Shown here in pieces: positions 5,338 to 50,498 of a DNA stretch of 64,000 nucleotides; position 1 is the stretch's first letter; every line of letters starts with the position of its first letter. This DNA is from Minisyncoccota bacterium (GTDB taxonomy: Bacteria; Patescibacteriota; Minisyncoccia; Phycocordibacterales; UBA9973): NCBI GenBank assembly GCA_041659785.1, contig JBAZXO010000001.1, positions 241,649 to 305,648 on the forward strand. The letters run 5' to 3'. A program made the translations under genes and the position numbers. The notes beneath the pieces were generated by a model that saw only the letters and a program-made list of their open reading frames with translations, was not told the origin of the DNA and did no database searches.

Positions 5338-5377
5338 TTAAGTAAAAACAAGTATACCCCCACACTTATTATAAGTC

Positions 5378-5415
5378 AAAAAAAAAAGTTGCTAGGTAAG
5401 ACCTAGCAACTTTTT
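5378..5415. terminator. Bidirectional rho-independent terminator
   Basis: A10-GTTGCTAGGTaagACCTAGCAAC-T5. Confidence 0.65.
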
Positions 5416-9262: not shown

Positions 9263-9367
9263 TATTTTTATTATATCATAGCAAAAAAATAAAATGCAAA
9301 TCCCCTCACCCCTTTCTTTCCCCTCTCCATAATTTTAATTATGGAGAGGGGTTGGGGAGAGGAGAAT

Positions 9368-15385: not shown

Positions 15386-15425
15386 AGTTTAAAAGTTCCA
15401 TACTCAGGAGAACTTTTATTACAAT

Positions 15426-15794
15426 TTACTTCTGAATTTTACTTATCAAAATACCCAAAAGTGTTTTCACGCTATTTTGCGCCTCTGCCTCAGTCTTGCT
15501 AGCGGTAAAATTCTGCCATTCTTTCATTATCTGTTCATCTTTCAAATCTCGAACTGCGTTTTCTAAAGAAAGCCTCGTCTCGAAATCAACTTCTGTATTT
15601 GCTTGTAATACTTTCTTGATAAACAAGGAAGTGAAGTTCAATACTTTATCATTTAATTCAAGCTTACTTTGAGTGGATTTTATTGTTTGTAATTCTTGGT
15701 TGGCAAAATAATAATTAAGCCCGAAAAAAGCGTTACCTATAACAAGTGCCCCAATGATTATAATAATTGAAATGCGATTTTTATTTTCTATCAT
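15426..15794 (-). CDS. Small membrane-anchored hypothetical protein
   Basis: 122 aa with an N-terminal TM helix. Confidence 0.5.
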   Translation of the reverse strand: MIENKNRISIIIIIGALVIGNAFFGLNYYFANQELQTIKSTQSKLELNDKVLNFTSLFIKKVLQANTEVDFETRLSLENAVRDLKDEQIMKEWQNFTASKTEAEAQNSVKTLLGILISKIQK

Positions 15795-15833
15795 ACTCGT
15801 TTAAAAATTCTTGATAATCTCTCTCTATATAAA

Positions 15834-34468: not shown

Positions 34469-37400
34469 TTAAGCATTATCTTCGGACTTCCGTAGGTCGA
34501 CATCCATGGCAAGGCCTCGTAAATAATTTAGTAAAACATTAAACGATGCTGGAGAATTTGGTGGTCTAATTGTTTCATTTTTGATAATAGAATCGAATGA
34601 CGCTGATCTACCGAGTATATCGTCAGATTTAATTGTAAGCATTTCACGAAGTGTGTAAGCAGCTCCATAACCTTCGAGTGCCCAGACTTCCATTTCTCCG
34701 AATCTCTGTCCTCCACCTTGAGCTTTTCCGCCCAAAGGTTGCTGAGTGATAAGAGAGTAAGGACCCACTGAACGCATATGAATCTTGTCTTCCACCATGT
34801 GGTGAAGTTTGAGCATATACATATAACCAACAGCTACATCTTGCTGAAAGGCTTCTCCTGTTCTTCCGTCGAAAAGTTTTAATTTACCATTTTCTGGTAA
34901 TCCCGCTTTTACCAACTCCTCTTTTATTTCATCATGTTTTGCTCCAAGGAATGGTGGAACGATTGCTTGATAACCGAGACTATTTGCAGCCATACCTAAG
35001 TGTATTTCTAAAATTTGTCCCAAGTTCATACGAGAAGGAACACCGAGTGGTGAGAGAATAACATCTACAGGTGTACCGTCAGCTGTATATGGCATATCTT
35101 CTTCTGGAAGAATCATCGAGATGACTCCTTTGTTTCCATGTCTTCCTGAAAGCTTGTCTCCAACAGAAATATTTCTGATTTGAGCAACTTCAATAACAAT
35201 CTTTTTAATAATTCCCGCTTCTAGTGTGTGCCCTAAATCACGAGAAAATATTTTTACACCAATAATACGTCCACGTTTACCGTGTTCCATACGAAGTGAT
35301 GTATCTTTCACGTCGCGTGCTTTCTCAGCGAAGATTGAGCGCAAGAGTCTCTCTTCTGGCGTAAGTTCAGTTTCCCCTTTTGGAGTAATTTTACCAACTA
35401 AAATATCATTCTCTCTTACTTCAGCACCGATGCGGACAATTCCATCCTCATCCAAATCTTTTAGTTTGAGTTCTCCGACGTTTGGAATATCGCGAGTTGT
35501 GATTTCGGGCCCAAGCTTGGTGTCACGAACAGCGCAAGTGAATTCTTCAACATAGACTGATGTAAATTTGCTCTTTTTTACAAGACGTTCAGAAATAACA
35601 ATAGCATCTTCGTAAGTTGATCCAGACCAAGATAAAAATGCTACGAAAATATTCTGACCGATTGAAATCTGTCCATTTACGGTACTACTCGTATCTGCAA
35701 GTACATCACCCTTTTTGATTTTATCACCGACATTTACGAGTGGACGTTGATGAAAAACAGCGAAGTTGTTATTCCTCAAGAAATTAACTAAGTTATAGGT
35801 TTTCTCATGCTTCTCATCGTGTTTTCCTTTTATCACTATTTTTTTAGCATCTAAATAAGAGACGACACCATCTTCTTCTGCTATGACCAATCTACCTGAG
35901 TCACGTGCAGCTAATTCTTCGACTCCTGTTGCTACGAGTGGCATCTCTGGCAACACGCAAGGTACAGCTTGCTTTTGCATGTTACTTCCCATGAGCGCGC
36001 GGTTTGCATTGTTATGTTCTAGAAATGGAACCATCGAAGTTGCAATGGAGAAAGCTTGGTTGGGAGCGACGTCGATAAAATCAACTTCATCTCTGGAGAC
36101 GATACCTGGTTCTGTTTTGATTCTGGCTTCTACTTTATCTTTTGTTATTTTGCCATCTTCGTCATAAGGAATACCGGCATGCGCAATGTTGTATTTTTCT
36201 TCTTCAAGAGCATTTAAATAAACAATTTCGCCGGTAATTTTTCCATGTTTGACTTTTACATAAGGAGTTTCAATGATTCCAAAATCGTTTATTTTTGCAT
36301 AAGTTGAAAGGTGCAAGATAAGTCCAATGTTTGGACCTTCTGGGGTATGAATAGGACACACTCTTCCGTAGTGAGAAGGGTGCACGTCACGAACTTCAAG
36401 ACCAGCACGTTCACGAGTCAAACCTCCGGGCCCAAGTGCGGACAAGAGACGAATATGCTCTATTTCAGCGAGCACATTTTCTTGCGCCATAAATTGTGAA
36501 AGCTGGTTGGTGGTGAAAAACTCTTTAATACGAGCTTGAAGTGGTCGTTGGTTAATAATAGCAATAGGCATTGCAGTATCAACATCAATAATAGACATTC
36601 TGTCTTGAATGTTTCTCTTAATCTGCATCATTCCTGTGCGAACTTTTTGTTGAAGAATTTCTCCAACAAAACGAACACGCCTCTGACCCAGGTGATCTAT
36701 GTCGTCTGCTTTTGCAAGTGGTGTATTGTTTAGAGTAATAATATGGGAAATTACAGTAGCTAAATCTTCTTTAGATATTACTCGGCGAGCCATTTCGTCC
36801 TCTTCCATAGACTTATCAAATCGTTGATTAAATCTAAATCGTCCTACTGGAGAAAGGTCATAACGTTCTGCTGTAAACAGAGAGTTAATAAATTCTTTAG
36901 CATTATCTGCAGTCGCCATGTCGCCATCTCGAAGACGTTTATAAATCTCAATATATGAATCGTTTAAGCTTTTTACTCCATCTTTAGCAAAAGTTGCCTT
37001 TATGGTTTCTTCCGCCACAGAGTTACCTGAAAATGCTTTTAAAATAGCTTCATTGGTTTCGTAACCCATCGCACGCAAGAGCGCTGTCGCAGGGAACTTT
37101 CTTTTTTTATCTATTCTTATATAAATTCCTCCATCGGCTTCGGACTCTATCTCAATCCAGACTCCGCGAGCTGGAATAATCTTTGCACCGAAATATCTCG
37201 TTCCTTTAGTTTCAGACTCGGTAAAGAAAACTCCGAAGCTTCGTGCAAGCTGGGGCACGATGACACGCTCTACTCCGTTGATGATGAAAGTACCATGCGC
37301 GGTCATAAGAGGAATCTCAGACATGAAAATCTCCTGTTCTTTAACAGTTCCTAGAATTTTATTAGTCAATTTTACTCGCGCTTTCAGAAGCCCTTGGTAA

Positions 37401-37651
37401 GAGAGTTTGTTTATTTTAGAATTATTTTCATCTACCTTAGATTCACTTAGAGAAAAAGAAGTGAATTCTAATTGAAACTTTTTCCCAGAGTAATCGATGA
37501 TTGGAGAGAATTCCTTGAAGACTTCTCCGATGCCCGTCTCGACGAGCCATTTGAAACTCTTTACTTGAGCTTCGATTAGATTTGGAAATTCCGCAAGAGG
37601 TTTCTTGTATCTTGAGAAATACTTCTTTGGGCGAGTTTTTTGTATTGACAT
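34469..37651 (-). CDS. rpoB: DNA-directed RNA polymerase subunit beta
   Basis: Conserved rpoB blocks throughout. 1060 aa, directly upstream of rpoC. Confidence 0.95.
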   Translation of the reverse strand: MSIQKTRPKKYFSRYKKPLAEFPNLIEAQVKSFKWLVETGIGEVFKEFSPIIDYSGKKFQLEFTSFSLSESKVDENNSKINKLSYQGLLKARVKLTNKILGTVKEQEIFMSEIPLMTAHGTFIINGVERVIVPQLARSFGVFFTESETKGTRYFGAKIIPARGVWIEIESEADGGIYIRIDKKRKFPATALLRAMGYETNEAILKAFSGNSVAEETIKATFAKDGVKSLNDSYIEIYKRLRDGDMATADNAKEFINSLFTAERYDLSPVGRFRFNQRFDKSMEEDEMARRVISKEDLATVISHIITLNNTPLAKADDIDHLGQRRVRFVGEILQQKVRTGMMQIKRNIQDRMSIIDVDTAMPIAIINQRPLQARIKEFFTTNQLSQFMAQENVLAEIEHIRLLSALGPGGLTRERAGLEVRDVHPSHYGRVCPIHTPEGPNIGLILHLSTYAKINDFGIIETPYVKVKHGKITGEIVYLNALEEEKYNIAHAGIPYDEDGKITKDKVEARIKTEPGIVSRDEVDFIDVAPNQAFSIATSMVPFLEHNNANRALMGSNMQKQAVPCVLPEMPLVATGVEELAARDSGRLVIAEEDGVVSYLDAKKIVIKGKHDEKHEKTYNLVNFLRNNNFAVFHQRPLVNVGDKIKKGDVLADTSSTVNGQISIGQNIFVAFLSWSGSTYEDAIVISERLVKKSKFTSVYVEEFTCAVRDTKLGPEITTRDIPNVGELKLKDLDEDGIVRIGAEVRENDILVGKITPKGETELTPEERLLRSIFAEKARDVKDTSLRMEHGKRGRIIGVKIFSRDLGHTLEAGIIKKIVIEVAQIRNISVGDKLSGRHGNKGVISMILPEEDMPYTADGTPVDVILSPLGVPSRMNLGQILEIHLGMAANSLGYQAIVPPFLGAKHDEIKEELVKAGLPENGKLKLFDGRTGEAFQQDVAVGYMYMLKLHHMVEDKIHMRSVGPYSLITQQPLGGKAQGGGQRFGEMEVWALEGYGAAYTLREMLTIKSDDILGRSASFDSIIKNETIRPPNSPASFNVLLNYLRGLAMDVDLRKSEDNA

Positions 37652-37740
37652 ATTGAATGCAAAAAATTAATGCTTTTTACAGCTTTATTAATAAAGAGAT
37701 TGCATCCGATACTCAATCAATGAATCTCAAATAGCCTACT

Positions 37741-38490
37741 CTATTTTGACTTTTTTGTCAAATTTTTCCACTCATCAATCTTTGCCCTGTGGCCTGAAAG
37801 CAACACTTTAGGAACTCTATAGCTTTTAGACTTCTTGCCCCGCCCTGGCGGTGGATATTTCAAAATTTCAGGACGAGTGTATACTTCACTTGTTGAGACT
37901 CGTTCTTCTTCAAGTGAATCATACCTTCCTAAAACTCCTGTAACTTGTCTGGCGATAGAATCTATCAATACCATCGCTGGAAGTTCTCCGCCCGTCAAAA
38001 CATAATCCCCTATTGAGATCTCCTCAGCCCCGCCATTAGGACGGGGTAAACCTTTCAAAATTTTAAATACTCGTGCATCAATGCCTTCATAGCGCCCTGA
38101 GATTAAAATAATGTCTGTATATTTTTGCGCAGACTTTTTCGCATAATTTGTATCAAACTTTTTTCCTGATGGAGAAAAAATTATTATTTTAACTTTAGAG
38201 CTTTGGCGCAGTGTTTTTGCGAATGGTTGACGTTGTGAAGCAGGAGATCCCGAGTGAGAACACTGCGCCAAAGCTTTGCTAATTGCTTTCAAAAAAAATT
38301 CTGGGCGTAAAACCATGCCTGGTCCTCCTCCATATGGTCTGCCATCTACCCTTTCCTTAGGCTTACAAAAGCTCATTGGATTATAAAATTTTATTGAAAT
38401 TTTTTTATCTTTTATCGCACGCCCAATTATCGATTCTTTTAAATAAGAATCAAACATATCTGGGAAAATTGTAATTATATGAAAACGCAT
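37741..38490 (-). CDS. trmD: tRNA (guanine37-N1)-methyltransferase
   Basis: MRFHIITIFPDMF...RPYGGGPGMV SPOUT knot motifs. Confidence 0.85.
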   Translation of the reverse strand: MRFHIITIFPDMFDSYLKESIIGRAIKDKKISIKFYNPMSFCKPKERVDGRPYGGGPGMVLRPEFFLKAISKALAQCSHSGSPASQRQPFAKTLRQSSKVKIIIFSPSGKKFDTNYAKKSAQKYTDIILISGRYEGIDARVFKILKGLPRPNGGAEEISIGDYVLTGGELPAMVLIDSIARQVTGVLGRYDSLEEERVSTSEVYTRPEILKYPPPGRGKKSKSYRVPKVLLSGHRAKIDEWKNLTKKSK

Positions 38491-38586
38491 TTATTTTGTA
38501 TTTATAGCACAAATATTGGTTATTAAAAAATGAAATGGCCAGAAGACTTAGGGTCGACTGGCCATGGTGAAGAAATTTTGCAGGTT

Positions 38587-38787
38587 CTATTGAAAGAACT
38601 TATATGCGGCGATGAAGGCCACCACCAGCACGAATAGGATTCTCTTTGCTGTGGGAGTGAGGTGGTTTTTGACCTCTGGGCCAGAATTGTGATGTTCATA
38701 GCACCCCTTTTTTTTCCCAGGACACACTTCATTACCAACGCCGATTTCATGACTTTTATGATTCCATAAAATGATTTCTAAGTTCAT
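38587..38787 (-). CDS. Small (66 aa) Cys/His-containing protein with a C-terminal TM helix
   Basis: AGGAG 7 nt upstream of ATG. Sits where rimM is found in other genomes. Confidence 0.4.
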   Translation of the reverse strand: MNLEIILWNHKSHEIGVGNEVCPGKKKGCYEHHNSGPEVKNHLTPTAKRILFVLVVAFIAAYKFFQ

Positions 38788-38901
38788 TTTTTCTCCTCGT
38801 ACATGAGAGATATTCCTTCGGCTCGAAGCGAGCAACCACGATTGGCAAGGAACTATCTTCTAGGCTAGTAATATAATAAAATAACCTTTTTGTCAACAAA
38901 T

Positions 38902-38935
38902 AAAAACACCCTAAACTTTCGTTTAAGGTGTTTTT
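38902..38935. terminator. Rho-independent terminator after the KH-domain gene
   Basis: A-run, CACCCTAAAC/GTTTAAGGTG hairpin, T-run. Confidence 0.6.
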
Positions 38936-38950
38936 AAAAGCTAAATTTTA

Positions 38951-39298
38951 TTATATTCCTTTCAATTCATCCATGGCCTCATCAACGGTTTTCATTGTTG
39001 GGGCAGTGCTCATAGCTCCCCGTTCTGCTCTCTCAGGTCTGACACTTCCTTCTGGTTCATTAATTTTTAGATTTACGCGAGCGTTATTCTTCATACCAAT
39101 GATGCGGAGTAACGTACGGATAGCCTTTGCTGTATTACCCATTCTTCCGATAATCTTACCCATGTCGAGAGGATTTACAGTTAGTGTTATGAGAACTCCC
39201 ATTTCATCTAATGTTCGATCAATCTTCACATCGTTTGGATTATCGACTAATGCTTTTACCACATACTCTAGAAATACCTTGTCAGCTTCTTCCATCAT
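38951..39298 (-). CDS. KH-domain RNA-binding protein (YlqC/UPF0109 family)
   Basis: VVKALVDNPNDVKI...GKIIGRMGNTAKAIRTLL KH fold. Follows rpsP. Confidence 0.8.
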   Translation of the reverse strand: MMEEADKVFLEYVVKALVDNPNDVKIDRTLDEMGVLITLTVNPLDMGKIIGRMGNTAKAIRTLLRIIGMKNNARVNLKINEPEGSVRPERAERGAMSTAPTMKTVDEAMDELKGI

Positions 39299-39418
39299 AA
39301 TGTTTTCTGAATTTAAATTTTTAATTTTATCTTTCTTTGCAGTATCCGACCGAATGACTGCTCCTATAATTATACTTCACCCTGCCATAGCGGGGCAAGC
39401 TTACACGCCTCTGGTGTG

Positions 39419-39727
39419 TTATTTCTTAGCTTTCAACTCTTTGCGTTTAACTGTTGGCTTTTTCTTGGGTAATACATTTACTTTCTTACCAGCTATAACT
39501 TTATCGTGCACTAAGAAGTTGTGCATAGTATCCGAAGTTTTTGCCCCCTTAGAAATCCAATACTTTATTCTATCAACAAGAAGATTCTTTTCTCCTGCCT
39601 TTGGATTATAAGTACCAAGTATTTCTAAAAACTTTCCACTTTTGGTGCTATTCTTGGAATCAGTTAAAACAGCCCGAAACGATGGATCATTTTTCCTCCC
39701 TATTCTCTGAAGTCTTATTTTTAACAT
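39419..39727 (-). CDS. rpsP: 30S ribosomal protein S16
   Basis: MLKIRLQRIGRKNDPSFR. Confidence 0.9.
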   Translation of the reverse strand: MLKIRLQRIGRKNDPSFRAVLTDSKNSTKSGKFLEILGTYNPKAGEKNLLVDRIKYWISKGAKTSDTMHNFLVHDKVIAGKKVNVLPKKKPTVKRKELKAKK

Positions 39728-39802
39728 AAGAATAGCTTAACATAATTTGCAAAAAAGGCAAATATTGTAAATTTTACATAAAACTTTTATTATTCCAACA
39801 CT

Positions 39803-39833
39803 AAAAAATCCAGAGGTAACCTCTGGATTTTTT
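39803..39833. terminator. Bidirectional rho-independent terminator
   Basis: AAAAAATCCAGAGGtaaCCTCTGGATTTTTT. Confidence 0.7.
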
Positions 39834-39856
39834 AAATTATCTAACTTATTTAATTA

Positions 39857-40105
39857 TTATTGTGTCGAAATACCACAAACTAAATGCGCAGAACATTTGG
39901 GATACACATTGGGACCTTGCCAAAAACAACCTTCTGGAGGAATAGGATGTTCACAAACTGGAAGAGAATGTTTCTTAACGTCTCCTCCGGGTAGAGTTAA
40001 CATTTGAGAGGAAAAGGCAACTTGCGCAAAAACATAACTTCCACTAAACAAAATAACTAATAATAAAAAAGAAATTTTTACACCATTTAATACTTTTGTG
40101 GACAT
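39857..40105 (-). CDS. Small secreted Cys-rich protein, founding member of the downstream paralog array
   Basis: Signal peptide resembles the A-type paralogs. PPEGCFWQGPNVYPKC motif shared with the gene at 45295..46458. Confidence 0.55.
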   Translation of the reverse strand: MSTKVLNGVKISFLLLVILFSGSYVFAQVAFSSQMLTLPGGDVKKHSLPVCEHPIPPEGCFWQGPNVYPKCSAHLVCGISTQ

Positions 40106-40159
40106 ATTTTTAACTAATACTAATTTACTAATAATAATATCTATTATACTGCTATTTAC

Positions 40160-40189
40160 AAAAAACCACTAATTTAAGGTGGTTTTTTG
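40160..40189. terminator. Rho-independent terminator after paralog A1
   Basis: AAAAAACCACtaatttaaGGTGGTTTTTTG. Confidence 0.65.
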
Positions 40190-40201
40190 TAAATGTATAA
40201 A

Positions 40202-40612
40202 TTTTAAAATTTATTCAATTGCTTTCTTTGGGATTCTCTTCATCATCTCTATTTTAGTCTGAGGACCAACTTTACCGTCAGCAGTTAATCCATTGTCACT
40301 TTGCCATTTCACAATTACTGCAATTGTCTTAGGTCCTAACTTACCGTCTAATACTAAACCAAGACCTAGATCATCATTAAGGAATCTCTGTAGTTCTTTA
40401 ACTGCATCTCCTTTACTTCCAACCTTAAGAGTAGAGGTACCGAAGTCGTAAGTTAAGGCTCCTGAACCTTGTGAAGGAGTTTGATTTGAGTTGTTTACAC
40501 AGAGTTGACCTGTTTGAGTGTTGTAGATGTTTCCTCCAGAGCAACCGAGTGCTGGTGGTGTTGGAAACTTTGTACAAGATTCTCCTGTTTGGGTATTGAA
40601 GAGGTTACCATC
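40202..40612. repeat. ~410-bp perfect duplication (3' coding end plus downstream flank of A1, equals 43328..43738 of A2)
   Basis: Identical sequence starting ttaaaatttattcaattgctttctttggg through ...ttgaagaggttacc. Confidence 0.85.
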
Positions 40613-41377
40613 AGAGCAGCCTTGTGGTGATGGAGGTGGATTTTGAGATTGAGTTTGATTTGGAGTTGTGCAAACATTATTAATTAACACTTGTGGTGGT
40701 GTACAGGTAGGTGGTGGGGTGCTGACAGTTCCAGAAGCTCCAATGTTTAAAACTACACTGCCTGTTTCACCTACTGTTTCACCTAAGGTATTTAATACAC
40801 CAGATGCGCTAGAATCTATAATGTTTCCAGTCCAATATGGCTGATAACTGCCAGTTACGGTGGGTAAAAGATCAGAACGAATAGCATGGAAATAGAGATT
40901 TATCATATATGATCCTGTAGGTATCGTTGTTGCTTTAGTGTAACAATTCCATCCTGTATCCAAGGAAGGAATACGGCATGGACTTGAAAAAGATTGATCA
41001 CGGTTTGGATCAAGAATGTATGCAGTACCTACATTCCATAAATAACTTCCAGTGTTAGGTACATTGTCTGCCACAAGGTAATAAGTTGTAGGTATTTGTG
41101 ATATTTGTTGACTGCTAGGACTAGATGTAGTACTAGGTTTTGTCAGAATTATTTGACCTTTTACGCTATCTTTAAGACCAGTTGTTCTCCAGTTAATTGT
41201 TTGACTACTTCCAGATGCCCATGTGCTATTGGTCGTTGGTGAAGTAATAGTTGCAGTTAATTCTGACGCAGTTGGATTAGGAACAGTCTGTGCTTTTATA
41301 ACAGATGTAGAATATCCTACCCCAAACAAAACAACTAAAACGAGAAGCGATATTTTTATATTTTTAAATATTTTCAT
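40211..41377 (-). CDS. Secreted cell-wall-binding protein, paralog A1 (signal peptide, Kre9/KNH-like Ig domain, CxxGxxxNTQTGxxC repeats, C-terminal PG_binding_1)
   Basis: ITSPTTNSTWASGSSQTINW...NVPNTGSYLWNV. LKVGSKGDAVKELQRFLN...DGKLGPKT...DGKVGPQT. Confidence 0.8.
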   Translation of the reverse strand: MKIFKNIKISLLVLVVLFGVGYSTSVIKAQTVPNPTASELTATITSPTTNSTWASGSSQTINWRTTGLKDSVKGQIILTKPSTTSSPSSQQISQIPTTYYLVADNVPNTGSYLWNVGTAYILDPNRDQSFSSPCRIPSLDTGWNCYTKATTIPTGSYMINLYFHAIRSDLLPTVTGSYQPYWTGNIIDSSASGVLNTLGETVGETGSVVLNIGASGTVSTPPPTCTPPQVLINNVCTTPNQTQSQNPPPSPQGCSDGNLFNTQTGESCTKFPTPPALGCSGGNIYNTQTGQLCVNNSNQTPSQGSGALTYDFGTSTLKVGSKGDAVKELQRFLNDDLGLGLVLDGKLGPKTIAVIVKWQSDNGLTADGKVGPQTKIEMMKRIPKKAIE

Positions 41378-41455
41378 AATCTTGTCCGCCTCTGGCGGAT
41401 TTATTAACTTACTAATAATTTATTAACTAATAATAATATTGACCTTTTATAAAAT
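41326..41455. repeat. ~130-bp near-perfect duplication (5' coding end plus upstream region of A1, equals 45168..45294 of A2)
   Basis: Identical aacaaaacaactaaaacgagaagcgatatttttatatttttaaatattttcataatcttgtccgcctctggcggatttattaac... Confidence 0.85.
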
Positions 41456-43249
41456 TTAATTCTCATTTGCTTTCTTTCTACTTTTAACACCAAACAATCC
41501 GTCAGCAGTTAATCCATTATCATTTTGCCATTGCATGACTACTTTAATTGTCTTTTTTCCTAATTTACCATCTACTACTAAATCAATGTTTAATTTATCA
41601 TTTAGAAATCTTTGCAATTCCTTTACTGCATCCCCTGTACTTCCAATTTTTAATGTTTTATCACCGAAGTTATAAAAGGAAGATACTTCTGATGTTTGAT
41701 TGTTGTTTGTGTTATCTGTTGTGTTGTTATTACACAATTGACCCGTTTGAGTGTTGTAGATGTTTCCTTCGGAACAACCTTCATGAGTGATAACTGGAGG
41801 GCAATTATTGGTAGCTCCAGGCCCACCCAAGCATTCTACAGGTAAGGGTGTAGGAAGAGGAACACACCCAAGTTGTTTTTCAGAGGTCATACCATTCGTA
41901 TTGGGTACACAATAAGCTATCGGAATGGTATTTGGAATCGTACCATCACTATTCGCTAATGTTATTAAGCGAAACCCAAGCGGAAAATTTGTTACTATTC
42001 CAGAAGGTCCATTCATAAATACATTAATACTGTACGCTGAACTACTTGCGGGTATAATTGAACCATCTGCGACAGTACCGACAGACTTCCATAAATAATT
42101 TCCCGTGTTTAGAATATTATCTACAACCGTCCAATTTTTTCCACCAATATTTGTTCCACTTAAAACAATTTTACCTTTTGCAGTACTTGGGATTCTCTCT
42201 GTTTCCCATTTAATTGTCTGTGTGCTTCCGATCTTCCAAGTGACATAACCTTGAGGATAAAGAAGGTTGAGTTTTGTATTATCAAACAATGAAACGATAT
42301 TAAAAGATATTGAATTACTCAAAAGAGTACCATTCTGAACTTGAAGTGAGTAAGGACCTGGAATAAATTCATAACCATTTACATCTTTTAATGGAACAAA
42401 ACTAAGAGACGTTGATGAAATAATAATTGGCTTAATTGTTGTTTTAGTAGGAACCAGCGCCTTTCCACTATTATCAGTCAGCACAACAGTTGTATTTGTA
42501 TTAAAATTTGTACCAGAAATAGTAACTGTATCCCCTGGGGATGGTGTCGTGTCAGAAGTGATACGAGATATTGTTGGAGTTGAAGATGTAGGAGTTATTA
42601 CTAAGGCTGAAATTATAGTTTCTATTCTCCCTTTTGTATTCTCACATCGTAATCCTACGGTAACAGGAGAGGAAGAAATATCGAGTGGACCAATTGTTTG
42701 TGTTCCTGAATTTGGAATCTGGCCATTATATTGCCATCTTCCTACAGTAGAACAGGAACTAGAACTTGTGCTTGTTACATTCCATCTAAGAACAGTCGAA
42801 GCACCATCAGAAACAACAGGTGGGGTAAGCGACATTGTGACAACGGGAAAAGTACCTTCCGAGGTTGAAGTAACTCCATACGGAAACCCTACACCCACAA
42901 CTGCTGTAGCTTCCACTACTCCTTCATTCCAACCAGAAGCGGAACACCTAAGGTTGTAAGATCTATATTCATAAGCTTCAGTTCCACGTTTAGCAAGGGA
43001 GCCAGTTGAAAATGAACCGGACTTTTGTTGTTCTCCTGTCCATGTACCACTATCATTATCTCCACTGGCAAAACAACTTCCTGTAACGTTTTTTGCTAAC
43101 CATGTAATTGTCGCTGAACCTCCTGGTGCAACATACGCTGGAGTTGCTGTCATTGTAATTTCTATTGGTGCGACTGTTTGCGCGTGAGTAAAATTAAAAC
43201 CCCCAAACAAAACAACTAATATAAGAATAAATATTTTGAATTTTTTCAT
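41456..43249 (-). CDS. Secreted cell-wall-binding protein, paralog B1 (signal peptide, Ig-like/Kre9-KNH-like domains, C-terminal PG_binding_1)
   Basis: MKKFKIFILILVVLFGGFNFTHAQ. C-terminal LKIGSTGDAVKELQRFLNDKL...DGKLGKKT...DGLFG. Confidence 0.8.
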   Translation of the reverse strand: MKKFKIFILILVVLFGGFNFTHAQTVAPIEITMTATPAYVAPGGSATITWLAKNVTGSCFASGDNDSGTWTGEQQKSGSFSTGSLAKRGTEAYEYRSYNLRCSASGWNEGVVEATAVVGVGFPYGVTSTSEGTFPVVTMSLTPPVVSDGASTVLRWNVTSTSSSSCSTVGRWQYNGQIPNSGTQTIGPLDISSSPVTVGLRCENTKGRIETIISALVITPTSSTPTISRITSDTTPSPGDTVTISGTNFNTNTTVVLTDNSGKALVPTKTTIKPIIISSTSLSFVPLKDVNGYEFIPGPYSLQVQNGTLLSNSISFNIVSLFDNTKLNLLYPQGYVTWKIGSTQTIKWETERIPSTAKGKIVLSGTNIGGKNWTVVDNILNTGNYLWKSVGTVADGSIIPASSSAYSINVFMNGPSGIVTNFPLGFRLITLANSDGTIPNTIPIAYCVPNTNGMTSEKQLGCVPLPTPLPVECLGGPGATNNCPPVITHEGCSEGNIYNTQTGQLCNNNTTDNTNNNQTSEVSSFYNFGDKTLKIGSTGDAVKELQRFLNDKLNIDLVVDGKLGKKTIKVVMQWQNDNGLTADGLFGVKSRKKANEN

Positions 43250-43293
43250 AAGATCTAATATTAACTACTAATACAAATATTATATCACACATA

Positions 43294-43323
43294 GAAAAAA
43301 CCACTCTTAAAAGTGGTTTTTTC
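43294..43323. terminator. Rho-independent terminator after paralog A2
   Basis: AAAAAACCACTcttaaAAGTGGTTTTTT. Confidence 0.65.
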
Positions 43324-43336
43324 TAAATTTTAAAAT

Positions 43337-45220
43337 TTATTCAATTGCTTTCTTTGGGATTCTCTTCATCATCTCTATTTTAGTCTGAGGACCAACTTTA
43401 CCGTCAGCAGTTAATCCATTGTCACTTTGCCATTTCACAATTACTGCAATTGTCTTAGGTCCTAACTTACCGTCTAATACTAAACCAAGACCTAGATCAT
43501 CATTAAGGAATCTCTGTAGTTCTTTAACTGCATCTCCTTTACTTCCAACCTTAAGAGTAGAGGTACCGAAGTCGTAAGTTAAGGCTCCTGAACCTTGTGA
43601 AGGAGTTTGATTTGAGTTGTTTACACAGAGTTGACCTGTTTGAGTGTTGTAGATGTTTCCTCCAGAGCAACCGAGTGCTGGTGGTGTTGGAAACTTTGTA
43701 CAAGATTCTCCTGTTTGGGTATTGAAGAGGTTACCTCCGGAACAACCTAGAGCTGGTGGTGGAGTGGTAGTAGAAGGACAGTTGTTTGTAGCGCTAGGTC
43801 CACCGAGACATTCAGCTGATGGAAGTGTGGAAGATGGAATTACGGGTGGAGTACTGATACTTCCAACAGCTCCGATGTTAAATGCTACTCCAGGACTAAT
43901 AATACCCATCATTCCAACGATATTAGATGGCTCACCATTTACAATAAATTGACCAAGGGAATTAGTCTGGAAAACATCTTTTGGATCAACAGAAAATTCA
44001 ACACCCATACTATATGGACCTGCTGGTACTGATGTTGATATAGTGTAACAACTCCAAGGAGGATTTGTAGAATTACATGGATTTGCAACCTCTCCAACAC
44101 CATTCAAATCTAGACCGTATGCGGTGCCGACTGAACTCCAAGAATATGTTCCTGTATTAGAAACATTGTTTGCAATAAGATATCTAGTGGGAATACGAGT
44201 TCGCACATATTGAGGATCACTAATCCTAAGGACTGCATCAGAATCATTTCTCGTAACAAATACTTGACCTTTCACACTAGCTGGAAGTCTTGTATTTGAC
44301 CAACGAATTGTTTGTGAACTTCCTATTGCCCATGTGCTATTTACTACCGGTGAAGTTATGGTAATTGTTGGCATTGCACTTGATCCGCCACTAGTGCTAG
44401 AACTAGAATCAGAAAGATTGAAAGAAACATAACCTGGCCAAACCGTACCTGTATGTGTTCCACTTACTCCAATAGACATTTTATATGGTGAACCATTTGC
44501 TGGTAAGGTTGTAGGTACCCAACTCATTGATGTTGTTGCCGATCCAGAAGATACTAACACATCACCTACTTTCCAAGAAAAACTCCCTGTATTAGAAACA
44601 CCATTTATTGGAACAATCAAATATGTTTTTCCATTTTTATCTACAACACTGATTTTAGCTACACTTGTAGCGTCGGTAGAAAAAGCATCTGGAAATGTCC
44701 AGCTGATTGTTTGTGTACTACCAATTTGCCATGAATCTCCGGCATTTGGTGAAGTTATAACAATTGGATTTGAAAGAGGGGTATATCTCACTATTACGCT
44801 CGGATGAGCACTTGCACCAGTAGAATACGAATAACAATTCATATTAAATGGCATCTCAGCTGGTGCTGTTGAATTTGCAAATAAAAATAATGATGAGCCA
44901 GAATTAGGACCGGCCGATTCAGACCAATTAGTACCACTATGATCTCCTAGTGTTTGATCTCCTAAAGGGAAAAGATGAATAGTTCCAGCACCGTTTGGAA
45001 CTGTTCCCCCGGTACAATACCAATCATTCGCACCTGTAGATGTCCACGAGAGGGTAATATTTGTTGACAAACCTTGATAACCAGAGAAATTCTGAGGAGT
45101 CGCTGTAAGAGTTACCGTTGGGGCAACTTGTGCATTCGCAATTGTTTTAAACATTAAACCTGCACCAAATAAAACAACTAAAACGAGAAGCGATATTTTT
45201 ATATTTTTAAATATTTTCAT
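43337..45220 (-). CDS. Secreted cell-wall-binding protein, paralog A2 (same termini as A1, different central Ig-like region)
   Basis: N-terminal 19 aa and C-terminal ~135 aa identical to A1. Central 450 aa unrelated. Confidence 0.8.
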   Translation of the reverse strand: MKIFKNIKISLLVLVVLFGAGLMFKTIANAQVAPTVTLTATPQNFSGYQGLSTNITLSWTSTGANDWYCTGGTVPNGAGTIHLFPLGDQTLGDHSGTNWSESAGPNSGSSLFLFANSTAPAEMPFNMNCYSYSTGASAHPSVIVRYTPLSNPIVITSPNAGDSWQIGSTQTISWTFPDAFSTDATSVAKISVVDKNGKTYLIVPINGVSNTGSFSWKVGDVLVSSGSATTSMSWVPTTLPANGSPYKMSIGVSGTHTGTVWPGYVSFNLSDSSSSTSGGSSAMPTITITSPVVNSTWAIGSSQTIRWSNTRLPASVKGQVFVTRNDSDAVLRISDPQYVRTRIPTRYLIANNVSNTGTYSWSSVGTAYGLDLNGVGEVANPCNSTNPPWSCYTISTSVPAGPYSMGVEFSVDPKDVFQTNSLGQFIVNGEPSNIVGMMGIISPGVAFNIGAVGSISTPPVIPSSTLPSAECLGGPSATNNCPSTTTPPPALGCSGGNLFNTQTGESCTKFPTPPALGCSGGNIYNTQTGQLCVNNSNQTPSQGSGALTYDFGTSTLKVGSKGDAVKELQRFLNDDLGLGLVLDGKLGPKTIAVIVKWQSDNGLTADGKVGPQTKIEMMKRIPKKAIE

Positions 45221-45294
45221 AATCTTGTCCGCCTCTGGCGGATTTATTAACTTACTAATAATTTATTAACTAATAATATTGACCTTTTATAATT

Positions 45295-46458
45295 TTAATT
45301 AACTTCTAAATTCATTTGTGCTTTAGTCTTTGCACCAACTAATCCATCAGCGACAAGACCATGGTCAGCTTGCCACTTCTTAATTACGGCAATTGTTTTG
45401 GGACCGAGTTTACCGTCTAAAACTAGACCAAGACTTAATTTATCATTTAGAAATCTTTGCAATTCCTTGACTGCATCTCCTTTACTACCCTTTTTTAGTG
45501 TTGCAGTACCGAAGTCATATGATCCTACTGAGGGGTTTTGGTTTGTATTTCCTACATTGTTTACGCAAAGTAAACCCGTTTGAGTATTGTAGATGTTACC
45601 ACCTGAACAACCTTGAACTTCTGAATTAGCGGAACATTTCAAAACCATTCCACAGCTTGTAGTAGAGTTATAGTTCGGACCTTGAACATAATTACAGCCC
45701 TCAGGTGGACGAGCATAATCGCAAACAGGCGAAGCCGTAGAAGATGTTCCTGTTGATGTACTAATACATGAACCACCAGTTACATAAGTGTATCCAGAAG
45801 AACAAAAAGATGCTGGTGGTGTTGATGAAACAATAACACATTTACCATCCACCATGTGATATTTAGAACCACCATTCTGACAAAAACTTTGCTGTTCCAA
45901 AAGAGATTTTTCTGACGCTGACAAAAGTGGATATGTTGGAATTGATGCTCCAGCAGAAGAAACAATATTTAATGGATATACAGAATATATATTCTGATTT
46001 ACATAAATTTTCAATGCATAAACACCCGGAATGACTACAGAACCATCAACTGCTGGACTCGCTGCTCCTACATTCCATGTATAACTTCCTGTATTCGATG
46101 TTATGGTTCCTTTATCGTCAGCACCTAATGCAATGATGTGCTTTATAATACCTCGACTGTTCCAACCACTGTAATCTTGAATAATACAATCACTGCTACC
46201 TGAAATAGCAGCAATATCTGATGGATTTGTTAACTCTGGACCACGCACTGGCCCACAAAGCCATAAGGTTGCACTTGCAGTTGTTATTCCACCTGCTTCT
46301 GCTGACTGCTTCCAATTTATGGTTTGGCTACTTCCCATCACCCAAGTAGTCCCGTTTGTTGGTAAAGAAAAACCAGGGAGAACAGTCTGCGCATTCGCAA
46401 AACTAAAACCTCCAAACAAAACAATTAATATAAGAATAAATATTTTGAATTTTTTCAT
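45295..46458 (-). CDS. Secreted cell-wall-binding protein, paralog B2
   Basis: B-type signal peptide. C-terminal PG_binding_1. PPEGCNYVQGPNYN Cys motif. Confidence 0.8.
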   Translation of the reverse strand: MKKFKIFILILIVLFGGFSFANAQTVLPGFSLPTNGTTWVMGSSQTINWKQSAEAGGITTASATLWLCGPVRGPELTNPSDIAAISGSSDCIIQDYSGWNSRGIIKHIIALGADDKGTITSNTGSYTWNVGAASPAVDGSVVIPGVYALKIYVNQNIYSVYPLNIVSSAGASIPTYPLLSASEKSLLEQQSFCQNGGSKYHMVDGKCVIVSSTPPASFCSSGYTYVTGGSCISTSTGTSSTASPVCDYARPPEGCNYVQGPNYNSTTSCGMVLKCSANSEVQGCSGGNIYNTQTGLLCVNNVGNTNQNPSVGSYDFGTATLKKGSKGDAVKELQRFLNDKLSLGLVLDGKLGPKTIAVIKKWQADHGLVADGLVGAKTKAQMNLEVN

Positions 46459-46526
46459 AATATATATTATACCTCAATTATTTTTAAATACCTATATCTC
46501 ATTTATATGCTATATTATATAGAATA

Positions 46527-48536
46527 ATGAACAAAAATAACCATAAAATAAAAGAGCAAAAGAACAAATTGCAAGGCATCATATCTGTCTCCTCTAAGGG
46601 TACAGGATATGTCAAAGTTCTGGGACATGAAGAAGACATTGAAATTGATTTCAAGCACCTAAACACTGCACTACATGGAGACGTTGTAGAAATAATTACT
46701 CACAAAAAGGAAAGGGATAGGATCACTGGTGAAGTAACGAAAATAATATCCCGCGCAAAAACTCGTTTCACGGGAATTCTAGAAGAAGAAAACAAGCTAT
46801 TTTTTTTGAAACCAGATGATACGAAAATGTACACCGATATCTTAATTCCGAAAGAAAATTTAAATAATGCTAAAAATGGACAAAAGGTTTTCGTAGAAAT
46901 AACTTCATGGATTGATGCAAAGAAGGCCCCAATCGGAAAAGTGATAAAAGTTCTAGGACATCCAGGAGACAACAACACTGAGATGTATGCGATAGCGATA
47001 GAAAAAGGTTTCGACTCAGACCTTCCTGATAAAGTAGAAATTGAAGCAAAAAAAATAAAACAAAATGGTATAAAAGAAACTGACTATAAAGGGCGTCGCG
47101 ATTTTAGAAATACCTTAACTTTCACAATCGATCCCTCAGATGCGAAAGATTTCGATGATGCAATATCTTTCAAGGAAATTGCAAACGGAGAATATGAGAT
47201 AGGTATACACATTGCTGACGTTTCGTATTATGTAAAAAATGGTACTGCTTTAGATGAAGAGGCACGCGAGAGAGGAACTTCTGTTTATTTAGTAGACAGG
47301 ACAATACCAATGCTTCCGGAAATTCTTTCGAATGATTTGTGTTCCCTAGTTCCCAACAAAGATCGCCTCACCATGAGTGCCGTTTTCGTTGTTGATAAAA
47401 ATGCAAAAGTTAAGGGTGAATGGTTCGGCCGTACGATAATACATTCACAAAAAAGATTTACTTATGAGAGTGCTGAAGATGTAATAAAAATCGCCTCTTT
47501 GGCGATCCGCCGTGGAGGCGGAGTACTCAATGATCCATACCAACAAGCATTATTTACGCTTAATAACTTAGCAAAAAAATTAACCAAAGAAAGATTTGAA
47601 AAAGGAGCAATTTCGCTAGACCAAGAAGAGGTGAAATTTGTACTCGACGCAAATGGAGTGCCAATAAAAGTAATTAAAAAGGAACGCGGTGATTCAAATA
47701 GATTGATTGAGGAATTTATGCTTCTCGCAAATAAAAAAGTCGCAGAAGTTTTGTCACCCAGAAATATCAAGGGAATAAAAAGCTCGAAGATAACAGAAAA
47801 GGATGAAAGCGTATCTATATACAGAGTACACGACCTGCCAAGCAAAGAAAAAATGGCTGATTTAGCATTTTTCTTAAGAAGTTTAGGGCATAAAGTTTCT
47901 TTACAAAATGGCGTTATCCCTACCCATGAAATAAATAAACTTCTTTTAAGTTTAGCTGGGAAAAATGAAGCTGATACGGTAAATCGCGCAGTAATACGCT
48001 CCATGGCTAAAGCAATTTATTCTACGAAAAACATAGGGCATTACGGTCTCGCTTTTGAATATTATACTCACTTCACTTCCCCGATCAGACGCTATCCAGA
48101 CATCATTGTTCACAGACTCCTCACAAAATATCTTTCTGGTAATAAAACCAAAAAAGAAAATTTATTAAATGAATTGAAAGAGTATGAAAAGATTGCATTA
48201 GTTTCCTCAGACCAAGAAAAACGTGCTTCAGATGCCGAGCGAGCTTCTATAAAATATAAACAAGTGGAATATATGTCTAAACGTTTGGGTAAAAGTTTCG
48301 AAGGAGTCATCAGTGGTATGACCGAGTGGGGCATGTATGTAGAAGAAGTAGAGACAAAATGCGAGGGCCTAGTGCGAGTGCGAGACATGACTGACGATTT
48401 TTATATTTACAATGAAAAGAAATTAGAATTAGTTGGGCAAAAAAAGAAAAAGAGATACCGTCTAGGTGATAAGGTAAAGATAAGAGTAAAAGCAGTTGAC
48501 TTAGAAAGAAAAACTATTGATTACGCTTTAGTGTAA
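46527..48536 (+). CDS. rnr: Ribonuclease R / RNase II-family 3'-5' exoribonuclease
   Basis: RNB catalytic motif DAKDFDDAISF. N-terminal cold-shock-like and C-terminal S1 domains. Confidence 0.85.
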   Translation: MNKNNHKIKEQKNKLQGIISVSSKGTGYVKVLGHEEDIEIDFKHLNTALHGDVVEIITHKKERDRITGEVTKIISRAKTRFTGILEEENKLFFLKPDDTKMYTDILIPKENLNNAKNGQKVFVEITSWIDAKKAPIGKVIKVLGHPGDNNTEMYAIAIEKGFDSDLPDKVEIEAKKIKQNGIKETDYKGRRDFRNTLTFTIDPSDAKDFDDAISFKEIANGEYEIGIHIADVSYYVKNGTALDEEARERGTSVYLVDRTIPMLPEILSNDLCSLVPNKDRLTMSAVFVVDKNAKVKGEWFGRTIIHSQKRFTYESAEDVIKIASLAIRRGGGVLNDPYQQALFTLNNLAKKLTKERFEKGAISLDQEEVKFVLDANGVPIKVIKKERGDSNRLIEEFMLLANKKVAEVLSPRNIKGIKSSKITEKDESVSIYRVHDLPSKEKMADLAFFLRSLGHKVSLQNGVIPTHEINKLLLSLAGKNEADTVNRAVIRSMAKAIYSTKNIGHYGLAFEYYTHFTSPIRRYPDIIVHRLLTKYLSGNKTKKENLLNELKEYEKIALVSSDQEKRASDAERASIKYKQVEYMSKRLGKSFEGVISGMTEWGMYVEEVETKCEGLVRVRDMTDDFYIYNEKKLELVGQKKKKRYRLGDKVKIRVKAVDLERKTIDYALV

Positions 48537-48539
48537 ACA

Positions 48540-48565
48540 CTATCAAACACCCAATGTTTAACAAG
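48540..48565. repeat. Degenerate REP hairpin copy
   Basis: CTATCAAACACCCAATGTTTAACA versus consensus CTGTCAAACACCCGATGTTTGACA. Confidence 0.5.
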
Positions 48566-48574
48566 CCGTAATAT

Positions 48575-49090
48575 CTAATAACTATTCCCTATTGTTTTTA
48601 TAAAAGTGTTTGCTCCAGTTCCACCATATTGATAAAACAAACCACCACAATAGTTAGCACCCGGGTCAGGACCCTTTGCTTCTTCTGTCCGATATACAAA
48701 CATATAAAATGGCCCACAATTAACATAGGAATATGCACCACCATTAATACCCCAAATATTTGGATCTGTGCTCTGGTTTGGATCTTTTGCAAGACTACCA
48801 AGAAAAGGAGCTAATTGTGTAGCCAAACTTGTCCAAGAATTATCGCTACTATTTGACCAACCAGCATTAGGTGCTGTTGCTCCCCCAGAAATTGGATAAG
48901 TACCATTTGTGTTAAAATATAATTCTATCGCTAGAATAATTTGATGAACATCAGATTTTCTTTTTGCATCACGTCCTCTTAATCTAGCTGGACTTAATGC
49001 AGCAAAAATTACTGTCGCTAAAAGACCGACAATTGCCACAACAACTAAAAGTTCGATAAGAGTAAAACCTTTTCTTTCATTTTTAAACAT
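48575..49090 (-). CDS. Type IV pilin / pseudopilin with prepilin-type N-terminal cleavage-methylation motif
   Basis: KG|FTLIELLVVVAIVGLLA. Likely start is the internal Met at 49090. Confidence 0.8.
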   Translation of the reverse strand: MFKNERKGFTLIELLVVVAIVGLLATVIFAALSPARLRGRDAKRKSDVHQIILAIELYFNTNGTYPISGGATAPNAGWSNSSDNSWTSLATQLAPFLGSLAKDPNQSTDPNIWGINGGAYSYVNCGPFYMFVYRTEEAKGPDPGANYCGGLFYQYGGTGANTFIKTIGNSY

Positions 49091-49144
49091 ACAGTTCATA
49101 TTATACAACTTAAATCTACGACAAGACAATTAAAAAAAAATTAT

Positions 49145-49179
49145 TTAGCAATCTGGGTCGCTTCGTCGAATTTTAACTG
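49145..49179. repeat. 35-bp imperfect direct repeat (DR1), duplicate of the smc 3' end at 50503..50535
   Basis: ttagcaatctgggtcgcttcgtcgaattttaactg versus ttggcaatctgtgttgcttcgtcgaattttactg. The DR1 reverse complement encodes KFDEATQIAK*. Confidence 0.75.
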
Positions 49180-49201
49180 TCAAACACCCGATGTTTGACA
49201 G
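49177..49201. repeat. REP hairpin copy 1
   Basis: CTGTCAAACAcccgatgTGTTTGACAG palindrome. Confidence 0.8.
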
Positions 49202-49206
49202 TTTAG

Positions 49207-49869
49207 TCAGTCTAAATTAAACTCTTCCCTCTTTTCTTTTACTCCACTAGTTTTAATAAAATAATTGTATTCATTTTTGTTTTTAAATTGTTCAAGGATA
49301 ATTTCATTTTTTAAAATCTCACCAAAACGATTTTCTTTAATATAATCCTGATAACTTGACCAAGGAAAAATATTTTCTTTTCCCTTCCACTCATTTAATT
49401 CTTTTGGATTCAAATGCACATAAGCAGAAAGATGCAGAAGCTGTTCATTGTCTTCAACATGAACTGCTTTATACGGTCCTTCAAAAAGATGCCCAGAAAC
49501 ACCATATCGAGTGTTAAAATATTTTGTATAAGAATTTAAAACACGTTGCATGTATTTACCTATTCCTCTTTCTTTAGTTTCTTTTATGATAAGGTGGAAA
49601 TGGTTGGGCATCAAAGCAAAACCGGTCAATTCCACAAATCTCTTTGAGATTAAGTTACTTTTTACATCATTATCAATGTCAAACACCCGATGTTTGACAT
49701 AGGAAGAAACAATTCTAGAAATTTGAGGAAAATTATTCTCTGCTTGAAAATATAAAATTAGAAAAAGAAAACGAATTCGATCTCTATCGTCTTTAAAAAT
49801 TATTTTCTTTCCTACTCCCCTATTATAAATATGATAATATTCATTTACTGCAATATTGTCTCGGTTCAT
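49207..49869 (-). CDS. REP-associated tyrosine transposase (IS200/IS605 TnpA-like Y1 transposase, RAYT)
   Basis: HuH motif MPNHFHLII and catalytic Tyr region AYVHLNP. Flanking REP hairpins. Confidence 0.8.
   Translation of the reverse strand: MNRDNIAVNEYYHIYNRGVGKKIIFKDDRDRIRFLFLILYFQAENNFPQISRIVSSYVKHRVFDIDNDVKSNLISKRFVELTGFALMPNHFHLIIKETKERGIGKYMQRVLNSYTKYFNTRYGVSGHLFEGPYKAVHVEDNEQLLHLSAYVHLNPKELNEWKGKENIFPWSSYQDYIKENRFGEILKNEIILEQFKNKNEYNYFIKTSGVKEKREEFNLD
49676..49700. repeat. REP hairpin copy 2 (inside the RAYT coding sequence)
   Basis: ATGTCAAACACCCGATGTTTGACAT encodes VKHRVFDI. Confidence 0.75.
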
Positions 49870-49898
49870 TATTTTATTTTACTACCAACGAAGAAAAA

Positions 49899-49923
49899 CT
49901 GTCAAACATCGGGTGTTTGACAG
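49899..49923. repeat. REP hairpin copy 3 (inverted relative to copy 1)
   Basis: CTGTCAAACAtcgggtgTGTTTGACAG is the exact reverse complement of copy 1. Confidence 0.8.
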
Positions 49924-49924
49924 T

Positions 49925-50473
49925 TTAATTAATCAATTTAAAAGTTTTCATTATGTCTGGAATTTGTAAAAGTAATTTAATTTCACTATCATTAAGCCCA
50001 TAAATTTTGACTAAGGAGCGCACATCATAATCATTAGAAACAAAAACATTATTTTGGTTCTCTGCCAAAAACTTATAGCCACTCGCATAAAGTGGATATT
50101 TATAATAAAAATCCTTAGAAATTATTATTATTTGTATATCACCAGTTCCCCTAGTAGAGTTTTTATCTATTATTTTAAAATTAACACTGTGTCTATACTC
50201 TGAGTTTAATTCATCCCCAAAAGAAACAATATACCCTCTCCAATCATAAGGGAAAGTTAATTCAAATCCATAATCTTTATTAGCGTACGTATTCGAGCCA
50301 ATCAGCCAACTAACTGGGGTAATTTTATTATTTATATTTTTTGTATTTCCATTCTTTTCTGTAATTATATTTGAGCTTTGAGACCCTGCATAATAATACC
50401 CAATCGCACATAAAAGTGTCAGAACAATTATAACTGCAATGAATTTCAAGGGATTTTTTTCTAATTTTTCCAT
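49925..50473 (-). CDS. Hypothetical membrane-anchored/secreted protein
   Basis: N-terminal TM after MEKLEKN. No known domain. Confidence 0.5.
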   Translation of the reverse strand: MEKLEKNPLKFIAVIIVLTLLCAIGYYYAGSQSSNIITEKNGNTKNINNKITPVSWLIGSNTYANKDYGFELTFPYDWRGYIVSFGDELNSEYRHSVNFKIIDKNSTRGTGDIQIIIISKDFYYKYPLYASGYKFLAENQNNVFVSNDYDVRSLVKIYGLNDSEIKLLLQIPDIMKTFKLIN

Positions 50474-50498
50474 ATATCGAAAGCTTACTACTTTAATC

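Follow-up and report, generated by a model that had tools for sequence, protein, structure and literature searches.

A fast-changing array of putatively wall-anchored, Ig-like proteins in a Paceibacterota genome, probably diversified by recombination between tandem paralogues

We analyzed a 64-kb stretch of DNA (hereafter the window; positions 241,649 to 305,648 of contig JBAZXO010000001.1, assembly GCA_041659785.1) from a metagenome-assembled genome (MAG) deposited as "Candidatus Paceibacterota bacterium." At issue are five tandem minus-strand open reading frames (ORFs), which are bracketed by RNase R (46527–48536, + strand) and rpsP/S16 (39419–39727, − strand). In order of transcription, these are B2, A2, B1, A1, and C0, and the first four encode large proteins with a PG_binding_1 domain. 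We conclude, with a probability of roughly 65%, that the array is a hypervariable island of wall-anchored proteins with immunoglobulin (Ig)-like domains, whose tandem paralogues and alleles have exchanged sequence through ordinary homologous recombination or through gene conversion.

The evidence that carries this reading is the distribution of identity between A1 and A2. A first-pass annotation had reported an identical 3' end of ~410 bp in these two genes, and this holds base for base: the 412 bp at 40198–40609 in A1 (− strand) and at 43324–43735 in A2 (− strand) are 100% identical, without a single mismatch. This 3' arm consists of the last 132 codons, the stop codon, and the 13 nucleotides (nt) beyond it. 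The terminators, which had been placed inside the identity, are outside the tract and are similar, not identical. The shared 5' end with its promoter-proximal hairpin, previously estimated at ~130 bp, was also recovered, as a 137-bp match at 95.6% identity with one 3-bp indel; it spans the interval between the stop codon of the preceding B gene and about codon 20 of the A gene. In A1, this 5' arm (41316–41455, −) takes in the entire B1-A1 intergenic region and the first ~20 codons; in A2 (45159–45292, −), it takes in the B2-A2 intergenic region and the first ~20 codons. The two copies, each with its hairpin, are exact over 108 bp (41328–41435 = 45171–45278). When A1 and A2 were placed in a protein-guided alignment, 396 consecutive coding bases were identical, compared with 56.7% identity over the other 609 aligned bases. 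Since none of 100,000 shuffles in a permutation test reached a run of this length, the longest permuted run being 61, the arm identity is not due to chance.

The centres of the two genes, which had been taken to be unrelated, are in fact diverged homologues. Residues 41–388 of A1 align to residues 285–627 of A2 with 61% identity overall, A2 carrying ~245 additional residues after its signal peptide. Over the 202 non-arm codons, identity is 42.6% in amino acids (aa) and 56.8% in nt, with a proportion of synonymous differences (pS) of 0.56, a synonymous divergence (dS) of about 1.0, and a nonsynonymous divergence (dN) of 0.55. Because 0 of the 132 codons of the 3' arm differ while dS in the centre is about 1.0, the combination of perfect flanks and a saturated centre is explained only by recent recombination or gene conversion. 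Purifying selection cannot account for arms that are 100% identical, since synonymous differences are absent and the corresponding modules of every other paralogue pair are only 74–75% identical in nt. The border of the identity tract falls within a Cys-loop motif, not at a module boundary.

The other pair of genes presents a different picture. B1 and B2 had been credited with conserved ends at ~90% identity, which is borne out at the 5' end, where the arm at B1 (43173–43261, −; 12 nt upstream and the first 77 nt of the coding sequence) is 87% identical over 89 nt to 46382–46470 at B2, and 95% identical over the first 60 nt. It is not borne out at the 3' end, where the modules are 75% identical in nt, no higher than in A versus B comparisons. 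Judged by their termini, the pairs are A1–A2 and B1–B2; in whole-length architecture, A1 resembles B2 (38% identity over 421 aa) and A2 resembles B1 (29% over 689 aa). Termini and architecture give conflicting histories for the array genes.

The central domains have few relatives. When 1.84 billion representative proteins were searched with the A1 centre using HMMER, 74 matches were obtained at E ≤ 1e-3, and among these only three proteins (P0002, P0032, and P0038) match most of the centre domain. All three have the A1-type centre domain joined to other termini and architectures, and one of them is encoded by an isolated gene flanked by clpP and tig. P0002, whose contig comes from Hainich groundwater, also contains the three N-terminal domains of A2 at 49% identity, followed by another C-terminal tail. 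The A2 centre appears to be old, because the same three-domain N-terminal part is found in P0002 in another genome. The protein family is modular and confined to Patescibacteria-type genomes. Further searches were less informative. A scan of genome and metagenome contigs with the arm found no relative above 66% aa identity, an arm-only protein search returned short fragments only, and a protein search with the four concatenated centres gave nothing useful, being swamped by multi-repeat type IX secretion system (T9SS) proteins. Exact-protein look-ups of A1, A2, B1, and B2 found no contigs; only C0 led to contigs from sister strains.

One of these contigs, L102 (ENA ERZ27237554; 1229 bp), which was found through C0 alongside L103–L104, provides the strain comparison that had been suggested as a check for alternative centres. 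From the A1 terminator through C0, this sister strain differs from the window at 6 of 485 nt (98.8% identity), and next to this flank, on a single 1.2-kb contig, the A1 position is occupied by a different allele. In that allele, the Cys-loop part is 90–98% and the PG_binding part 62–84% identical, while the centre is unalignable to A1 or A2. The L102 centre is instead 83% identical in nt (75% in aa) to the P0002 gene, which lies in a rplU-recR context in another genome. In this close strain, the A1 locus holds a replaced allele. The end of the A1=A2 identity, at 40198, is within about 10 bp of the onset of near-identity between A1 and L102, and this junction reads as the signature of recombination just downstream of the stop codon.

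A more distant comparison is offered by the syntenic contig L002 (JGI 3300037810 / JBAZYS01), in which the array flanks are kept at 77–86% nt identity. Between RNase R and rpsP, L002 has four PG-binding genes (460, 640, 937, and 725 aa) plus a small gene. One of the four has its PG module at the N-terminus, and outside this module the genes are unalignable to the window. The second L002 gene (P0003) does align as a protein with the whole of B1, at 37% identity. Three spacers are orthologous to those of the window: the one between RNase R and the first gene (z = 16), the one between genes 1 and 2 (z = 15.3), and the one between the small gene and S16 (z = 12.6). The L002 spacer between genes 1 and 2 is the orthologue of the A2-B1 spacer, and the single gene 1 occupies the place of B2 and A2. 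Since L002 keeps the flanks and spacers but differs in the array genes, the island turns over much faster than its surroundings. The original proposal of gene conversion or cassette exchange is upheld in part: recent recombination is indicated and the locus varies in both L102 and L002, but the centres, being diverged homologues, do not qualify as unrelated cassettes. Gene content near the array differs in a second respect: between RNase R and the pilin gene (4538–6484), L002 has a 648-aa Peptidase_S11/PGA_cap gene that the window lacks.

Perfect arms are not general in this protein family. The L002 array has no perfect arm repeats, and no replaced allele was seen at the PG-binding genes of four strains of a sister lineage (L005, L030, L031, and L033), which are 98.8–99.97% identical. 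Another contig, L012, does repeat a PG_binding 3' end perfectly over 312 bp, but inside duplicated Y1-transposase units (10140–14241), where the unit made up of the PG_binding 3' end, a Y1 gene, and a 92-aa ORF is present twice. What differs among the sister-lineage strains is only the copy number of a ~650-bp tandem repeat (L005 6435–7600, also in L030, L031, and L033) with 95% identity between copies. The repeat apparently belongs to a long ORF that lies downstream of the PG_binding module at L005 2851–3030.

As for the proteins, the four large ones share a common plan: a signal peptide, optional extra β-rich domains, a Kre9/KNH-like domain (motif W-x2-GS-x-QTI ... NTG-x-Y-x-W), a linker that often contains CLGGPxATNNCP, one or two Cys-loops (motif GCSGGNI[YF]NTQTGxxC), and PG_binding_1. 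The last of these (PF01471) is well supported in Pfam, where A1, B1, A2, and B2 score 42.0, 35.4, 40.9, and 43.8 bits (E = 2.9e-11 for B2) against a gathering score of 23 bits. The earlier assignment of Kre9/KNH-like Ig domains fared less well, since every match to Kre9_KNH (PF10342) is below the gathering score of 24.6 bits (B2, 23.0; A2, 19.0; A1, 14.2; E values from 1.4e-4 to 0.078), although PF10342 is present in distant homologues retrieved with the array proteins. Structural prediction of the centres, another suggested check, was partly informative for A1: an AlphaFold2 model based on a six-sequence alignment contains a β-sandwich at residues 41–165 with a predicted local distance difference test score (pLDDT) of about 74–84, whereas the rest is of low confidence and the mean pLDDT is 51. 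A Foldseek search of the PDB with this model gave generic Ig-like matches only, all with E ≥ 0.019 and none with E < 0.01. No catalytic domain was found by Pfam or NCBIfam in the four large proteins. Cell-wall hydrolases with PG_binding_1 (SleB-like and similar) were considered and rejected, as the NCBIfam matches span only the binding-domain part and are far below the cut-offs. The domain content therefore points to four non-enzymatic surface proteins, most likely held non-covalently on peptidoglycan by PG_binding_1. A role in adhesion or host contact would be a guess from the domain types.

The events that we propose are simple. Ectopic gene conversion between the tandem A paralogues would have copied the sequence of one A gene over both ends of its partner, leaving the old, diverged centres untouched, and the same process, acting between paralogues and between strains, would generate mosaic alleles such as the one in L102. 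We infer that the mechanism is RecA-type conversion. The window encodes an AddA-like helicase-nuclease with UvrD and PD-(D/E)XK domains (61073–63955), which is consistent with a capacity for recombination but not specific evidence of it. Several considerations weigh against our interpretation. Two tracts in one gene pair need either two conversions or one event replacing the centre, and the data fit both. The source genome is a metagenome assembly, and L102, at 1.2 kb, is the sole informative contig from a sister strain and covers just the 3' 723 nt of one gene. Finally, wall binding and host contact are read from domain annotation, and the Ig-like fold from sub-threshold Pfam matches and a low-confidence model (mean pLDDT 51).

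The single-event version would be that A1 and A2, after a whole-gene duplication or conversion, were once identical throughout, and that one centre was then swapped for a divergent imported allele through crossovers in the conserved ends. The arms would then be a substrate of exchange and not its product alone. Such a replacement accounts for both tracts at once, and it fits the wholly different allele at the A1 position in L102, whose centre is 83% identical in nt to a gene of another genome and context, as well as P0002, P0032, and P0038, in which the same Ig-like centre is combined with termini and architectures of other kinds. It also fits gene 1 of L002, which stands where the window has B2 and A2, suggesting that a whole segment composed of a spacer and an A gene may have been gained. 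However, no donor above 60% identity was found for either centre in genome or metagenome collections, the PG_binding part of the arm differs too in L102 (62–84%), so the swap there went beyond the centre, and two conversion tracts yield the pattern equally well. We consider centre replacement, the main rival, unlikely, while giving it real weight. It is doubtful, and distinctly more so, that the conserved ends are recombination arms that have been selected as such, making the island between RNase R and rpsP a dedicated locus for the exchange of Ig-like surface domains, among tandem genes and among strains, that sets host or phage specificity, with the hairpin spacer in the portable unit. A faulty assembly could also mimic parts of the pattern, if identity or tandem order came from collapsed or misjoined strain variants. 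The source is indeed a MAG contig (318,407 bp), and related strains coexist in public samples, where contigs break near the array (L102–L104). Sister strains are present in the ENA analyses ERZ27237554, ERZ27237587, and ERZ27253369. Yet the A2-B1 junction consists of unique sequence that includes a terminator and a promoter of its own, and because this spacer has an orthologue in L002 (z = 15.3), an artefact is improbable. L002 likewise has four PG-binding genes and a small gene. Moreover, an assembler could swap centres between identical arms but could not create shared sequence; at most, an identity of 98–99% would have been polished to 100%. We give this explanation a slim chance.

The first-pass annotation had gone further and described the array as a built-in variation system. 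A dedicated, programmed system of the pilE/pilS, vlsE, shufflon, or diversity-generating retroelement type would swap surface domains at high frequency, and some features are what it would produce: conserved ends around a variable middle, a surface-type product in an organism thought to live host-attached, and an allele difference at the strain level. Its machinery, however, was not found. There are no silent or promoter-less cassettes with the same arms in the 64-kb window, which has no arm copies beyond two of each, and both A copies are full ORFs with a start codon and a signal peptide. Inverted repeats of at least 30 nt number 0 in 37000–49500. Among the ORFs of at least 150 aa that were scanned (about 30/39 of those in the window), there is no reverse transcriptase, and the sole recombinase, a large serine recombinase beside a tRNA, is 38 kb from the array. 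The Y1 transposase-like gene belongs to a separate insertion 2.7 kb away, and the tract border lies inside the Cys-loop motif. We therefore regard programmed variation as very unlikely indeed. Three specific systems were rejected on similar grounds. An invertase shufflon or phase-variable inversion is discounted by the lack of such inverted repeats in that interval and of a recombinase within 38 kb, and a diversity-generating retroelement by the lack of a reverse transcriptase among the scanned ORFs and by repeats that are 100% identical, not adenine-variable. An IS200/IS605 or REP/RayT unit is discounted because the Y1_Tnp gene (49207–49869) is 2.7 kb off, the hairpin occurs only in the duplicated spacer, and the terminator hairpins are outside the tract.

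The individual genes, all on the minus strand, correspond to NCBI proteins MFA5932038–42. B2 (45295–46458; 387 aa; MFA5932042.1) has a signal peptide, one Kre9/KNH-like Ig-like domain, a Cys-rich region, one Cys-loop motif (GCSGGNIYNTQTGxxC), and a C-terminal PG_binding_1. In A2 (43337–45220; 627 aa; MFA5932041.1), a signal peptide and the ~245 additional residues precede an Ig-like domain that is homologous to the one in A1, a pair of Cys-loop motifs, and PG_binding_1. B1 (41456–43249; 597 aa) combines a signal peptide with several Ig-like/TIG-like domains, a Kre9-like domain, one Cys-loop motif, and PG_binding_1, while A1 (40211–41377; 388 aa; identical to P0001, MFA5932039.1) has a signal peptide, one Ig-like domain, two Cys-loop motifs, and PG_binding_1. 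C0 (39857–40105; 82 aa) is a secreted 4-Cys protein. At the N-termini of all five proteins, a K-rich stretch is followed by a hydrophobic stretch and an A-x-A/AQ-like motif, which by inspection we read as a Sec signal peptide. The original description of five signal-peptide genes ending in PG_binding_1 thus stands for the N-termini, whereas by Pfam only four of the five have the domain, C0 being without it. A small secreted 4-Cys protein is present beside rpsP in two genomes (C0, 82 aa; L002, 76 aa, 17449–17679), and the C0-type 4-Cys module (C-x6-EGC-x10-C-x5-C) is also found inside B2 (residues 244–272) and in the C-terminal part of P0002.

Promoters and terminators were identified by eye. 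Perfect −10 boxes precede B2 (46466–46471), B1 (extended, TGATATAAT, 43280–43288), and C0 (TATAAT, 40143–40148). Terminator-like hairpins on the minus strand follow A2 (about 43295–43324), just before the extended −10 box of B1; A1 (about 40160–40188), just before the TATAAT of C0; and C0 (about 39803–39833). The B-A spacers, of 74 and 78 bp, have neither a −10 box nor a terminator-like hairpin. This placement suggests that the array is organized as two bicistronic units, B2-A2 and B1-A1, plus the small gene C0. A scan for the sigma-70 consensus was uninformative in this AT-rich DNA (19 sites versus 25 expected). On composition, horizontal transfer was rejected, the guanine-cytosine (GC) content being 35–39% in the array and its flanks alike.

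Each B-A spacer contains the hairpin TCCGCCAGAGGCGGA (41385–41399 and 45228–45242, −), which has a 6-bp stem and no U-tract and lies 8 nt upstream of the ATG of A1 and A2. These are its only two occurrences in the whole window. Rfam has no family matching the hairpin, and the full spacer gives no better fold than shuffled sequences do (z = −0.96). In L002, a hairpin read by eye at the matching place, the spacer between genes 3 and 4 (15160–15195), has a different stem sequence and an 8-bp stem. In both cases, the hairpin is just upstream of the second gene of a bicistronic unit and is followed by GGACAAGA and ATG. The spacer hairpin may be a conserved element for RNA processing or translation.

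Other parts of the window contain mobile or unusually large genes. Relative to the syntenic L002, a ~1.3-kb insertion of low GC content (29%) is present between SMC and the pilin gene (49173–50500). Its minus-strand ORFs encode a Y1/IS200-like transposase (49207–49869; Pfam Y1_Tnp, E = 9.6e-8) and a 194-aa protein (49925–50509). At least 10 independent related loci have a homologous Y1 gene 0.2–1.1 kb downstream of, and on the same strand as, a gene with Cys-loop and PG_binding_1. At the start of the window, the gene for the large serine recombinase (54–1616, +) overlaps the end of the tRNA (1555–1627, −). No rRNA or host gene was identified for the group I intron that comes next (1930–2177; Rfam, 75.9 bits), and the region 54–2177 may represent the border of an integrated element. 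The interval 5414–17852 contains three very large ORFs on the minus strand, encoding proteins of 1282, 2005, and 672 aa. The 2005-aa protein has a Peptidase_S74 domain, an intramolecular chaperone characteristic of tail-fibre or endosialidase-like proteins, and the other two have sub-threshold CarboxypepD_reg-like matches.

Paceibacterota and other bacteria of the candidate phyla radiation (CPR) are thought to need physical contact with a host, and their surface proteins are almost unknown. Our literature searches turned up no account of a locus of this kind from CPR bacteria. The array would represent a candidate set of wall-anchored, fast-evolving contact proteins in these organisms, and it suggests that strain-level mosaic recombination, familiar from pathogens, is also at work in tiny CPR genomes. 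In practical terms, it could serve as a marker for tracking strains and is a reasonable first target for studies of host specificity.

Several known systems invite comparison. In Neisseria pilE/pilS and Borrelia vlsE, a single expression site is accompanied by many silent, promoter-less cassettes, from which conversion moves variable sequence. The array shares with them conserved segments around variable ones but, unlike them, has no silent cassettes in its 64-kb window. The mrp-emm-enn genes of Streptococcus pyogenes are tandem surface paralogues with conserved leader and wall-associated C-terminal regions and variable central or N-terminal parts, which undergo recombination between neighbours. 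The array resembles them in plan, although emm-like proteins have coiled coils and a covalent LPXTG/sortase anchor, whereas the array proteins have predicted Ig-like domains and, most likely, a non-covalent anchor in PG_binding_1. In the bab paralogues of Helicobacter pylori, chimeric genes arise through gene conversion within the genome, and strains differ in which gene sits at each locus (PMC4552749). Like babA/babB/babC, the array genes have homologous 5' and 3' regions, a differing middle, and a replaced or chimeric allele at the locus in a related strain (in L102 only). Unlike them, they are arranged in tandem, carry PG_binding_1, and belong to an uncultured CPR bacterium, whereas the bab genes lie at dispersed loci of a Gram-negative pathogen, encode outer-membrane proteins, and undergo CT-repeat phase variation; recombination in the array is read from sequence comparison, not from directly observed switching. 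Gene conversion is also named as a factor in the evolution of Plasmodium falciparum cell-surface antigens in the title of one paper (PMC10919680). The Trypanosoma cruzi MASP and P. falciparum MSP paralogues are large eukaryotic families with glycosylphosphatidylinositol (GPI) anchors and offer an analogy only. By these comparisons, the pattern in the array matches known families of recombining surface proteins and reveals no new mechanism.

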